NCBI GenBank assembly: GCA_048939995.1
Contig: JBHLOY010000003.1
Span: 384,001-448,000 of the forward strand
DNA: 64,000 bases
Direction of reading: 5' to 3'
Origin: Promethearchaeota archaeon
GTDB taxonomy: Archaea; Asgardarchaeota; Lokiarchaeia; Sigyniarchaeales; SOKP01
Under the pieces are notes generated by a model. That model was not told the origin of the DNA. It saw only the letters and a list, made by a program, of their open reading frames with translations, and ran no database searches. Numbering within the stretch: the stretch's first letter is position 1; every line of letters starts with the position of its first letter. Positions 32,706-36,622 of this stretch are shown here, piece by piece. A program made the position numbers and the translations under genes.

Positions 32706-33275
32706 ATGATAAAAATGGTAAAAGAAGTAAAAGTTCCAGAAGAACATAAAAAAAATGCTCCTGAAAAAATAAATTTGGCTCTGATTATTGTAAGCACTAG
32801 TCGATTTAATGAGATCGAGTCTGGAAAAAAAAGTTCGGATAAAACTATCCCTAGAGTACAACAAATATTAGATGATAATAACTCGCTTTCATTAAACTTT
32901 ACATCTATTATATCAGATTCAGAAGAACATATAGAAAAAACCCTCTCTCAGGTAATGAAGGATCCTACTATTGATGCAATAATCTTTAGTGGTGGCACTG
33001 GATTGTCAAGAAAAGATATTACCTATGAAACCTTGGAACCGCGATTAAAAAAGAAAATTAATGGTTTTGGAGAACTTTTTAGATCACTTTCTTTCAATGA
33101 AATTGGGGCCTCAGCTATGCTATCAAGGGCAACGGCAGGTATTTTGAGAGGTGAAGAGAAGAATAAAGCTATTTTTTTACTGCCAGGGTCTCCAAATGCA
33201 GTGAAATTAGCTTTAAATCATATTATAATACCTGAATTGGGACATATTTTATATATAATCAATAAGCAAGAGTGA
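32706..33275 (+). CDS. moaB: Molybdopterin adenylyltransferase MoaB/MogA
   Basis: SGGTGLSRKDIT, GFGELFR, AMLSRATAG, LPGSPNA. Confidence 0.92.
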   Translation: MIKMVKEVKVPEEHKKNAPEKINLALIIVSTSRFNEIESGKKSSDKTIPRVQQILDDNNSLSLNFTSIISDSEEHIEKTLSQVMKDPTIDAIIFSGGTGLSRKDITYETLEPRLKKKINGFGELFRSLSFNEIGASAMLSRATAGILRGEEKNKAIFLLPGSPNAVKLALNHIIIPELGHILYIINKQE

Positions 33276-34528
33276 TACTTGTGGAAAAACTCCGAAAAAT
33301 TGGATTTTCCAAGTTAACACCGATAAATGATGCTTTAGGCAAATTATTTTCAAAAATTCAAGAAAGTTCAATTGAAGAAATTGAAATTAAGCATGCTCTA
33401 AATCGCATTTTAGCAGAAGATATAGTCAGTGAATTGGATATCCCTCCATTTGATCGATCAGCTATGGATGGTTATGCTATTAAAGCAGAAGATTCATTTA
33501 ATGCTTCACTAAAAAACCCGAAAAAGATTAAACTTATTGGAATTATTGAAATCGGAGAATCTGCAAACTTTAAAGTTCATAAAGGTGAAGCGTGTAAAAT
33601 TTCCACAGGGGCACCACTACCAGAAGGTACTGATGCAGTTATAAAAATTGAAGATACAGAATTAGAAAATGATTTAATTAGTTTATACACATCTTTAGTC
33701 CCAGGAAAAAATGTTTCAAAGAAAGGAGAAGATATTAAGAAAGGAACCCAAGTATTAAAAAAAGGTTTGGACCTAAAGGCTGAACATATTGCACTTCTCT
33801 CTTCTTTAGGGTATAACTATGTAAGAGTAAAAGTTAAACCAAGAGTAAGTATTTTTGCATCTGGAGATGAACTACTTGAACCTGGTGATACCTTGAAACC
33901 GGGTAAAATTTACAATTCAAACACTCTAATGATCTCAACCTTAGTGAATTTATATGGAGGGCTTGTCATTAGAGCTGAAACTGTTAAAGATGACAAATCC
34001 ATTATTAAAAAGAGACTAATTGAAGCAAAAGATGACTCTCAGATTCTAGTCTTCACCGGAGGCACATCAGTTGGCACAAAAGATTATCTACCTGAAATAA
34101 TTAATGAATTAGGTATCATTTTAACTCATGGTATAGCAATGAGGCCAGGATCACCTGTTTTATTAGGTCTCCTTAATGATACTCTTATTTTTTGTCTACC
34201 TGGTACACCAGTCGCAGCATATGTTTCATTTTTAAAAATAACTGGACTTGCTATTAGAAAAATGTTAGGATGCTCTATCTTAGATCCAAGAGTCGAAATT
34301 TTAGCAATAATTAATAAAGATGTTCCTGTTTCAAGCTTAGGAATTCTACATTATTTAAGAGTAAAAATAGAACAAGATAATTATAACTATGTAGCTTATC
34401 CAATTAAATTGAAAGGTTCTAGTATTATAACTTCATTGATACACTCAGATGGAATAGTTGAAATCCCTCCAAATCAAGAAGGATTGAAAAAGGGAGAAAT
34501 AGTCAATGTGAAACTCTTTCCTAAATAA
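33272..34528 (+). CDS. moeA: Second MoeA paralog
   Basis: PPFDRSAMDGYA, SGDEL, TGGTSVG, RPGSP, LPGTP. Confidence 0.93.
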   Translation: MILVEKLRKIGFSKLTPINDALGKLFSKIQESSIEEIEIKHALNRILAEDIVSELDIPPFDRSAMDGYAIKAEDSFNASLKNPKKIKLIGIIEIGESANFKVHKGEACKISTGAPLPEGTDAVIKIEDTELENDLISLYTSLVPGKNVSKKGEDIKKGTQVLKKGLDLKAEHIALLSSLGYNYVRVKVKPRVSIFASGDELLEPGDTLKPGKIYNSNTLMISTLVNLYGGLVIRAETVKDDKSIIKKRLIEAKDDSQILVFTGGTSVGTKDYLPEIINELGIILTHGIAMRPGSPVLLGLLNDTLIFCLPGTPVAAYVSFLKITGLAIRKMLGCSILDPRVEILAIINKDVPVSSLGILHYLRVKIEQDNYNYVAYPIKLKGSSIITSLIHSDGIVEIPPNQEGLKKGEIVNVKLFPK

Positions 34529-34637: not shown

Positions 34638-35510
34638 ATGGTTAATACCTCAGAGATAGTTAAAGATCTACAGCAAAAATATCGAATTATTGGAAGAAAT
34701 ACGGAACTAAGCAAGATTATACTTGCTAGATCTGTTGGAAAGCATATTTTGATTGAAGGTGAAGTCGGTGTTGGAAAAACTACTATAGCTCGCGCAATAG
34801 CATCTTATTTTGATTCAGATTTTTATAGAATAGATTGTAATGAGGAAACTTTATCGCACAATTTGGTTGGGTTTTGGGATCCTCCCTTAGTAATCGCGAA
34901 AGGTTATATCGAAGAATCATACGTTTATGGACCGCTTTCTTCAGCTATGTTAAAAGGGGGATGTTTATTCATTAATGAAATAAATAGAATGCCAGAGAGC
35001 ACTCAAAATTCTCTTTTAACCGCTTTAGATGAAGGAATAATTGAAATTCCTAAATTAAAAACAATAAAATCCGATAAGAAATTCTTTGTTATTGCCACGC
35101 AAAATCCTGGAGCTCATGTAGGGGTAACTGTTTTAGGTGAAGCTTTAAAGGATAGATTCATATGGATCAAATTAGATTACCAAACACCAGAAGAAGAAAT
35201 CTTAATCATAAAAAAAGAAGCAAATTTAAATAACTCTAATACAGATAAGATCGCCAAAATTTGCCAAAATATAATTCAATTAACAAGAGAAAGTGCTTCA
35301 ATCCGAAGAGGTAGTTCAATTAGGGGCGCAATAGATCTTGCAGGATTAGTTTTGAATTCAGGAAAACAAACTAGCACAAGAAATTGGGTAGAAGCAGGTA
35401 TTATGGCTCTATACAACAAGATTGAATTAGAAGATGGAGTAACTAAATCTAAAACAGAAATAATTACAGATATTATCCTTTCCACTCTAACTAAGCTGGA
35501 TTTTCAGTAA
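34638..35510 (+). CDS. MoxR-family AAA+ ATPase
   Basis: GEVGVGKT, FINEINR, ATQNP, ALKDRF. Confidence 0.92.
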   Translation: MVNTSEIVKDLQQKYRIIGRNTELSKIILARSVGKHILIEGEVGVGKTTIARAIASYFDSDFYRIDCNEETLSHNLVGFWDPPLVIAKGYIEESYVYGPLSSAMLKGGCLFINEINRMPESTQNSLLTALDEGIIEIPKLKTIKSDKKFFVIATQNPGAHVGVTVLGEALKDRFIWIKLDYQTPEEEILIIKKEANLNNSNTDKIAKICQNIIQLTRESASIRRGSSIRGAIDLAGLVLNSGKQTSTRNWVEAGIMALYNKIELEDGVTKSKTEIITDIILSTLTKLDFQ

Positions 35511-35547
35511 TCGATGATTTCTCTTCAAAAAAGTCTGAAGAGATTGA
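35498..35547 (+). other. Candidate -1 ribosomal frameshift signal
   Basis: G_GAT_TTT in the MoxR frame, 6-nt spacer CAGTAA, then a stem-loop (TCGAT/ATTGA below CTCTTCA/TGAAGAG). Confidence 0.55.
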
Positions 35548-36622
35548 GAATAAACGGTTACATGTAAGGTTAACAGAAAAACTTCCCGATAAAGAAATTT
35601 TAAGATATGAAATCATTAGAAAAAAGAGAAAAAGACCTAATTATTATCAACATCTAGCAAATTCTTTGGATTATAAACAGATTAAGGAATTAACCTATTT
35701 AGCAATTGAATATAAAAATCTAGAGGCTATTATCGGTTTACTCAAGTCAAACGTTTATGCTGCGACTGATGCCTTAGATTGCGATGAGGGTGTTAAATTT
35801 TTCTCTGAAAAAGCAAAAGATTCGGCAACCTCTATGGCAGAGGTTTACTTTTTTATAAGACGACCCATATCTGAAAAGTATAAAAAGATATTTAGGAGAT
35901 TAGCTCGGCAAAGTATATTGAAAACAGCGCTCAAAATCACGAGTAAAGGTATAAGAGGAAATTACAAGAAAGTTATCCCTCATTACGAAATCGGTATGCC
36001 CGAATTTGATTTGGATGAGACAATTCAGCATAATCCGTTAAAAATCTATCAAAAAACTCTTACCTATAACGATATTTATGGCATTAAAAGAATGCAACAA
36101 AAGCGTAAGATTGTATTGATTCTAGACACAAGTGGGAGCATGTATGGACGACTACTTCTCAATGCGGCTTTAACAGCTTCTGTGCTTGCCTATAATATGG
36201 AAAAAGAAGATTATGCGATAATATTATTTAACTCAACAGCAATGATCTTAAAAAAGATCGATGAAAAAAAACCTATTACAACTATTATAGATGATATTTT
36301 AGACTCTGAAGCAAGTGGTTTTACAAACATCTATATTGGTTTAGAAAAAGGATTAAAAGAATTAAATAAAGTTAAAAAGGAACCGAGAAATCAATTCGGA
36401 ATTTTAATAACAGATGGAAATTATAATCGAGGCGAAAACCCACTTAACTTGGCCGAAGATTATTCTAAACTGCATGTAATAGGAATGCCAGCTGAAAACG
36501 ATGCAGATAGAGGAATTGATGTATGTAAAGAAATCGCCAATAAAGGAAGAGGAAAATTTTATGCGGTAAAAGATTATAAAGAAATTCCAAGAGCCCTAAT
36601 AGATTTATTATCACAATATTGA
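35504..36622 (+). CDS. VWA (MIDAS) domain protein; frame open from 35495 with no canonical start until TTG 35666
   Basis: LDTSGSM, GFTNI, ITDG; the upstream in-frame sequence SVIDDFSSKKSEEIENKRLHVRL... looks coding. Confidence 0.85.
   Translation, partial: SVIDDFSSKKSEEIENKRLHVRLTEKLPDKEILRYEIIRKKRKRPNYYQHLANSLDYKQIKELTYLAIEYKNLEAIIGLLKSNVYAATDALDCDEGVKFFSEKAKDSATSMAEVYFFIRRPISEKYKKIFRRLARQSILKTALKITSKGIRGNYKKVIPHYEIGMPEFDLDETIQHNPLKIYQKTLTYNDIYGIKRMQQKRKIVLILDTSGSMYGRLLLNAALTASVLAYNMEKEDYAIILFNSTAMILKKIDEKKPITTIIDDILDSEASGFTNIYIGLEKGLKELNKVKKEPRNQFGILITDGNYNRGENPLNLAEDYSKLHVIGMPAENDADRGIDVCKEIANKGRGKFYAVKDYKEIPRALIDLLSQY

Follow-up and report, generated by a model that had tools for sequence, protein, structure and literature searches.

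Comparative evidence for a probable -1 programmed frameshift joining a MoxR-type ATPase to its VWA partner in Asgard archaea

We present a comparative analysis of two adjacent genes, encoding a MoxR-type AAA+ ATPase and a protein with a VWA domain, in a stretch of 64,000 nucleotides (nt; hereafter the window) from a 3.75-Mb Lokiarchaeia-type Asgard genome that is 98.3% complete. The results suggest, with a probability that we put at roughly 0.8, that the pair is a single recoded gene whose downstream part is reached through a conserved -1 programmed frameshift. An earlier reading of the window, made from its letters alone (the sequence-only reading), had proposed such a frameshift, with a 290-residue MoxR protein and a fusion of about 661 residues as its products, and the comparison of orthologous loci supports that proposal in several respects: the phase of the two frames is kept, the core of the slip site (a run of U) is kept, no conserved start codon is present, the stretch that lacks a start is under coding constraint, and the RNA beyond the slip site contains conserved and covarying structure.

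The features of the junction are as follows, in window coordinates.

34638 to 35510, forward strand: zero-frame open reading frame (ORF) of the MoxR-type AAA+ ATPase (P0002), 290 amino acids, made by standard decoding; Pfam matches AAA_5 (1.4e-21) and AAA_3 (1.9e-20)
35492 to 35494, forward strand: TAA in the -1 frame, the upstream boundary of the region in which a shift is permitted
35495 to 36622, forward strand: -1 frame ORF of the VWA protein (P0001), 375 codons
35501 to 35504, forward strand: slip core U_UUU, consisting of U35501 and the zero-frame Phe codon 35502-35504
35508 to 35510, forward strand: MoxR stop codon TAA, one codon past the slip codon
35511 to 35549, forward strand: downstream RNA element, a bulged stem-loop with a kink-turn-like fit
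35666 to 35668, forward strand: TTG, the first canonical start codon in the VWA frame, not a conserved start; the 57 codons before it contain no ATG, GTG or TTG

The MoxR frame ends in CTG GAT TTT CAG TAA, and the VWA frame, which is -1 relative to it, is open from 35495, so that the two overlap by 13 nt up to the MoxR stop. The heptamer G_GAU_UUU, which the sequence-only reading had singled out as slippery, spans 35498-35504 on the forward strand, and its U_UUU lies between the -1 frame stop at 35492-35494 and the zero-frame stop at 35508-35510, where both frames are open. That reading had placed the end of MoxR, the opening of the VWA frame and the heptamer correctly, and it was equally right about the run of 57 codons without ATG, GTG or TTG, which ends at TTG 35666. 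Its arithmetic also holds on translation. Phe 289 is the last residue common to the fusion and the 290-residue MoxR protein, and reading from 35501 supplies the C-terminal 373 residues of the would-be fusion, 372 of them specific to it, for a total of 289 + 372 = 661 residues and a junction peptide LDFSVIDDFSSK.

The proposed mechanism is that most ribosomes would terminate at UAA 35508 and release the 290-residue AAA+ ATPase, while a fraction would slip by -1 when the tRNA-Phe on UUU 35502-35504 re-pairs with UUU 35501-35503. The shifted ribosomes would read UCA GUA AUC and onward, producing a 661-residue protein in which MoxR is followed by an acidic linker, then by a helical domain and last by a VWA domain with its MIDAS motif. 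The structured RNA at 35511-35549 would probably stimulate the slip, and the fusion could serve as one tethered VWA adaptor within a ring in which most subunits would be free MoxR. Slippage itself, its efficiency, the ribosomal site (P or A) that UUU would occupy, any part played by L7Ae and a purpose in setting ring stoichiometry are all inferences.

Orthologous loci were collected from three sources (related genomes, public Promethearchaeota contigs, and a phylum-wide draw), giving 175 non-redundant junctions from 21 GTDB families of Asgard archaea. The -1 phase, whose conservation across orthologs had been proposed as a check, is kept in 166 of the 175 loci. All but one of these 166 also contain U_UUY inside the open -1 stretch ahead of the MoxR stop, and on this comparison a recurrence in 165 of 166 -1-phase loci from independent assemblies is far beyond chance. 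The residue before the Phe codon can be Asp, Asn, His, Gly, Arg, Pro or Leu, and in every one of the 165 loci the base that directly precedes the Phe codon is U; the background frequencies of third-position U in the same MoxR genes are 77% for Asp, 73% for Asn, 75% for His, 32% for Gly, 16% for Arg, 40% for Pro and 20% for Leu. The Phe codon itself is TTT in 161 of 165 loci, compared with a background of 66%. Since the U is fixed whatever the preceding residue and TTT is in excess, we take selection at the nucleotide level to be acting on U_UUU, which would be unexplained if the -1 frame were not read there. At two loci of the window's own family (L105 and L106) a -1 frame stop directly abuts the UUU codon, and a frame change there is consequently possible only on that codon. 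Conservation of GGATTTT among orthologs, another of the proposed checks, held for the U_UUU (U_UUY) part and failed for the heptamer as a whole: the first base is G, A or U even within the window's family, so that what is kept for slipping is the tetranucleotide and not G_GAU_UUU. The distance from the UUU codon to the MoxR stop is 0, 3 or 6 nt in the relatives, and 15 nt in one locus.

The VWA frame does not have a start codon of its own that is conserved. No ATG, GTG or TTG occurs within 30 nt of the stop in 134 of the 175 loci, and among the first 30 related loci the first canonical start ranges between codons 0 and 121, while a more distant locus has it as late as codon 217. In the window, the codons at the MoxR stop are GTA and ATC, neither of them a canonical start. 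The codon overlapping the stop can only be NTA or NTG, and across lineages it is ATA, GTA, CTA or TTA, with TTG or GTG found only where the stop is TGA.

The sequence that precedes the first canonical start nevertheless evolves as if it were translated. When 79 sequences of the window's family are aligned by codon, third-position entropy is 1.0-1.8 and amino-acid entropy is low over codons 19-56 (numbered from the slip codon), and the 37 codons ahead of TTG 35666 display the codon-position pattern of translated sequence. At 35666 itself Leu is kept but its codon varies (position-1 entropy 1.0), and indels in the variable stretch past the stop come in multiples of three in the window's family. 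Elsewhere, the codons right after the stop in family f2 vary synonymously (Ala as GCT, GCA or GCG; Asn as AAT or AAC), and the spacer codons of family f16 vary at their third positions. Judged by these patterns, the 57 codons without a start evolve as coding sequence, and coding selection acts on the downstream ORF, which has no initiation signal of its own, all the way from the shift site. Public gene models of the VWA protein begin at arbitrary internal codons and are 296-367 residues long, and many orthologues of the VWA part carry the name 'Mg-chelatase subunit ChlD' in the Joint Genome Institute (JGI) annotation, a generic label. Both the variable model starts and the JGI naming look like annotation artefacts of the missing start.

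The RNA downstream of the slip site is most clearly structured outside the window's own family. In ten families (f10, f12, f14, f16, f18, f19, f20, f25, f28 and f29) a hairpin of 5-13 base pairs begins exactly 10 nt past the first UUU codon, that is, 7 nt past the next codon. This distance is constant whether the stop lies 0, 3 or 6 nt past UUU, and the sequence RAUGA stands directly 3' of the hairpin. The stems are wholly different among families, examples being GGAGGU/ACCUCC, GGAGAU/AUCUCC, AGGAAUU/AAUUCCU, GGGAAUUC/GAAUUCCC, GAGGACAUUU/AGAUGUCCUU, and further AGAGUU/GGCUCU, GGGUGA/UCACUC and GGCUC/GAGCC. The anchors of the pairing were picked blind to structure, as the position 10 nt after the Phe codon on one side and the base preceding RAUGA on the other, and at these anchors 84% of positions pair, compared with 38-63% when the partner is slid. 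All five base pairs form in 36 of the 39 loci of the ten hairpin families and four pairs form in the other three, and hairpins are about 8-fold enriched relative to control positions in the same genes. Two more families, f4 and f2, follow the same design with a 13-nt spacer. The layout in these other families, 5'-helix-GA-[hairpin]-RAU-GA-helix-3', would fit a kink-turn (K-turn): pairing in the flanking helix reaches 76% at two positions and shows covariation, and the 3b.3n pair is for the most part non-Watson-Crick, as in known K-turns. A covarying stem downstream of the slip site, which the sequence-only reading had named as a check, is thus borne out by compensatory changes at a fixed short distance in ten families; for the window's own family covariation is limited and the support is weaker.

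In that family the hairpin of the others is gone, and GAUGA stands directly 3' of the stop. Synonymous sites are frozen in two arms, namely codons 1-7 (TTT TCA GTA ATC GAT GAT TTC) and codons 14-16 (GAG ATT GAG). In an alignment of 80 sequences of the window's family, the core columns, which correspond to window positions 35511-17 and 35546-49, include ten that are invariant in all 80 sequences (U19, C20, A22, U23, G24, A25, G57, A58, G59 and A60), and the eleventh core position, L1, is a purine in all 80 (G in 77, A in 3). A kink-turn reading of the window would pair UC 35511-12 with GA 35548-49, leave GAU 35513-15 as the bulge, and set GA 35516-17 opposite GA 35546-47 and UU 35518-19 opposite UU 35544-45, followed by a stem of 35520-27 with 35536-43 closed by the loop 35528-35. 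The 3b.3n pair is U.U in 68 of the 80 sequences, and 82.9% of cells in the element pair, compared with 31-53% in slid controls. The local fold is also more stable than shuffled sequence (z score -2.5), and the 55 nt past the slip codon fold at -12 kcal/mol (z score -3.2). The stem-loop quoted in the sequence-only reading, TCGAT 35511-15 with ATTGA 35543-47 and CTCTTCA 35521-27 with TGAAGAG 35536-42, is present in the window, but its outer helix is broken in 9-14 of the 80 relatives, and the kink-turn pairing fits the invariant positions of the family better than the helix TCGAT/ATTGA does.

From this fit, which is one of sequence, the element at 35511-35549 may be a kink-turn and a putative binding site for L7Ae, for which this genome has genes. 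A stronger version, in which L7Ae or a paralogue binds a true kink-turn and, acting in trans, sets the frameshift efficiency and hence the ratio of free MoxR to MoxR-VWA, is a tentative proposal that we hold to be possible but rather doubtful. A search of window positions 35507-35590 against Rfam returned nothing significant; its six chance-level hits (E 1.8-8.6) include four to C/D-box small nucleolar RNA families on the forward strand, which is consistent with the GAUGA...UGA motifs but remains at the level of chance.

Several observations weigh against a frameshift or weaken the case for it. A stop/start overlap of 4 nt gives the -1 phase automatically, so that phase alone is weak evidence, and the loci are phylogenetically related, which means that the counts overstate the independent support. 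A canonical X_XXY_YYZ heptamer, in either register, is found at only 64 of 165 loci, and the G_GAU_UUU of the window is not canonical. With regard to the RNA of the window's family, the consensus fold is weak (-4.6 kcal/mol by RNAalifold on 80 sequences) and the C-stem of the kink-turn reading consists of only two Watson-Crick pairs. Glu and Ser/Asp codons lie in the hairpin arms, whose conservation is thus in part at the protein level. Every locus of the window's family moreover carries ATA or ATC no more than two codons from the stop, so that non-AUG reinitiation is a possibility there. Finally, the search for relatives of at least 658 residues fused in frame, which the sequence-only reading had recommended as a check, found none, unlike the situation for chlD, and this counts as weak negative evidence.

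The automatic phase and the nearby ATA or ATC codons are what would be expected if ribosomes terminated at the MoxR stop and then reinitiated at a non-canonical codon at or next to it (GUA or AUC in the window, AUA or AUC in relatives), in which case a separate VWA protein and no fusion would be made. It also speaks for reinitiation that the overlap codon is TTG or GTG, with TGA stops, in families f5, f8, f10, f13 and part of f16 and at locus L112. We did not accept these TTG and GTG codons as evidence of starts, however, because with a TGA stop three of the four possible NTG codons are starts by chance, and because in f16 TTG (8 loci) interchanges with TTA (5 loci) according to whether the stop is TGA or TAA, so that the occurrence of a start codon at that position is incidental. 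In many other lineages the overlap codon is CTA, TTA or GTA, and eight loci (L025, L026, L028, L029, L115, L129, L132 and L133) have no near-cognate codon for 9-60 codons. Reinitiation would further leave unexplained both the U fixed before the Phe codon with the preference for TTT and the covarying hairpin or kink-turn, whose distance is fixed from UUU and not from the stop. On balance we consider it unlikely.

Two other explanations appear to us far less probable still. The assumption made by ORF callers is that translation of the VWA protein begins independently at TTG 35666, yielding 318 residues, and that 35511-35665 is an untranslated spacer. This codon is indeed the first canonical start in the frame, and the public models begin at codons of this kind, but the strong coding constraint upstream, the lack of conservation of the TTG codon itself and the scatter of first canonical starts argue against such initiation, which would also remove two helices from a confidently folded domain (see below). 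The frame could alternatively change at the level of RNA or DNA, through transcriptional slippage on the T-run that is present at the junction, through an intron of the bulge-helix-bulge (BHB) type containing the stop, or through an assembly indel or pseudogene. The T-run is only four bases long in 98 of 165 loci, which is too short for known transcriptional slippage and makes that process unlikely. The bases just past the stop evolve as codons of the -1 frame (f2 and f16), with indels in threes, and so are not intronic. The arrangement is shared by 165 independent assemblies with both ORFs under purifying selection, which excludes an assembly error and a pseudogene. We regard any such change of frame at the level of RNA or DNA as very improbable.

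The loci that depart from the common pattern behave as the frameshift reading would lead one to expect. The sequence-only reading would have been undermined by orthologs with a normal ATG for VWA and variable phase; an ordinary start is present in two distant families, f5 (TTG) and f31 (a start of its own, in the +1 phase). The single f5 locus has no U-run and no hairpin, and has TTG at the stop overlap. In the nine loci of f31 (L134 and L138-L145) the VWA frame is at +1, no hairpin is conserved, and a conserved TTG lies 20-23 nt 5' of the stop, usually together with an ATG about 10 nt 3' of it. The conserved f31 junction is AAG TTT TTT CGG NCC (NNN) stop; its MoxR-frame reading is K-F-F-R, and in the VWA frame it gives S-F-F-G-P. 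The VWA protein of f31 could possibly start from the TTG 20-23 nt upstream or the ATG about 10 nt downstream, or ribosomes might slip by +1 on UUU_C, ahead of CGG, which is a rare codon. Since f5 and f31 lack the slip-plus-hairpin cassette but have an ordinary start, we read them as replacements and not as refutations: if expression normally depends on the cassette, an ordinary start is what one would expect wherever it is missing. These lineages show that the fusion is dispensable in some cases. Families f8 and f13, where AAU UUU UGA comes with an overlapping TTG and the hairpin is absent, may use translational coupling.

The part of the predicted protein that would be specific to the fusion consists of a disordered acidic linker of about 30 residues, a helical domain, and a VWA domain bearing the MIDAS motif; Pfam places VWA at residues 206-365 of the -1 frame ORF. 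The MIDAS residues DTSGS, T277 and D307 are invariant in the relatives; a MoxR-class AAA+ ATPase thus adjoins a VWA protein whose MIDAS is intact. An AlphaFold2 model of the 375-residue frame has a mean predicted local distance difference test (pLDDT) score of 82.8, with residues 1-26 disordered, helices over 32-148 and the VWA domain at 196-375. Helices 32-55, which lie upstream of TTG 35666, are part of the confidently folded domain in this model, and VWA chains of NorD are among the best fold matches. For the MoxR ORF, the best single-domain relative in the PDB is 2r44, a MoxR-type chain (68 bits). The top PDB match is eukaryotic midasin at 134 bits, but that score is the sum over seven AAA stretches of at most 40 bits each and implies no specific affinity to midasin, and the idea of a midasin precursor was dropped.

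Genes for a MogA/MoaB-like protein and for MoeA, both of molybdenum-cofactor metabolism, lie directly 5' of MoxR at window positions 32706-34528. MoeA/MogA genes adjoin the pair in 26 of about 100 loci of the window's family (including L003, L032 and L064) and in none of the loci of other families, for which shorter flanks were fetched. This adjacency concerns only about one in four loci of that family, and no conclusion was drawn about a functional tie to the molybdenum-cofactor genes; insertion of a metal cofactor is a possible role of the MoxR/VWA pair. The same genome also encodes a paralogous protein of 833 residues (L002, G000:C23:5297-7798) with a C-terminal VWA domain (23% identical to the present one) and an N-terminus without a recognisable family, and relatives of this type, 830-870 residues long, occur in most related genomes.

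If the frameshift is real, it would constitute a second kind of cellular -1 frameshift in archaea, distributed over at least 19 Asgard families and marked by an RNA signal that is well defined and covaries. Hundreds of Asgard genes would have their annotation corrected, since the public VWA models are truncated to 296-367 residues. The arrangement also suggests a route by which a MoxR ring could gain exactly one tethered adaptor, a stoichiometric recoding comparable to that of the frameshifted chlD genes (fs-chlD).

Among known systems, fs-chlD is the closest. In these genes of magnesium and cobalt chelatases, a -1 frameshift leads to an AAA+-only product and an AAA+-linker-VWA product (PMC3711429, Antonov et al. 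2013; PMC9227772, Kuznetsov et al. 2022), and the carriers include the archaea Methanocaldococcus and Methanococcus (PMC3711429, PMC9227772). The likeness to the Asgard pair lies in one locus with two products that is annotated as two adjacent genes. The slip sites of fs-chlD are poly-A runs (A_AAA_AAA...), whereas the Asgard site would be U_UUU followed by a hairpin or a kink-turn-like element, and fs-chlD has in-frame fused relatives of the kind that our search for the Asgard pair did not find. The ATPases differ as well. The MoxR-type ATPase scores 23-24 bits against the BchD-ChlD and Cob-chelatase models (cut-offs 500 and 779 bits); TIGR02031 gives 23 bits against its cut-off of 500, and TIGR02442 gives 21-24 bits against 779. 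Pfam Mg_chelatase reaches only 1.5e-5 compared with 1.4e-21 for AAA_5, and a search of the genome, 98.3% complete, for CobN/ChlH (PF02514) came back empty although the positive controls responded. By these profile scores the Asgard ATPase is of the MoxR type and belongs to a different AAA+ family from the chelatase BchD-ChlD.

A cellular -1 slippage in archaea is known from fucA1 of Saccharolobus solfataricus, which uses A_AAA_AAT and for which slippage in the P site only is among the mechanisms considered (PMC1616953; PMC8211752); according to a 2021 review it was the only demonstrated case of -1 frameshifting in archaea (PMC8211752). That case concerns a single species in which the frameshift is needed for the sole functional product, while in the Asgard pair two products would be expected and the signal is found phylum-wide.

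The heptamer of the window is identical to the -1 site of dianthoviruses such as red clover necrotic mosaic virus (RCNMV), G_GAU_UUU with a downstream stem-loop, which is viral and acts on eukaryotic ribosomes. Because the first base of the heptamer varies among the Asgard loci, the resemblance beyond U_UUU is probably coincidental.

With respect to the proteins, the pair resembles NorQ/NorD, CbbQ/CbbO and RavA/ViaA, in each of which a MoxR-class hexameric ATPase works with a VWA partner that bears a MIDAS. In those systems each partner is translated from its own start as a separate polypeptide, and recoding is not known, whereas the Asgard pair is, on the comparative evidence, probably recoded. 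Cryo-electron microscopy of NorQD places the N-terminal domain of the VWA partner on the C-terminal subdomain of one subunit of the NorQ hexamer, with a long linker to the VWA domain (PMC13036017), and this docking geometry, which a covalent tether would imitate, would make such a tether through the C-terminus of MoxR mechanistically plausible.

With respect to the RNA, the downstream element would, on the sequence fit, share with kink-turns and box C/D RNAs a helix, a RAU bulge, tandem G.A/A.G pairs, a non-Watson-Crick 3b.3n pair and a second helix. Our search of the literature turned up no K-turn described as stimulating a frameshift, and a kink-turn bound by L7Ae, if this part of the proposal is true, would represent a new class of stimulator and the first protein-dependent K-turn signal for frameshifting, in the archaeal lineage closest to eukaryotes. 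A conceptual parallel to such a putative L7Ae-dependent frameshift is provided by the selenocysteine insertion sequence (SECIS) and its protein SBP2, a recoding signal of the K-turn type.

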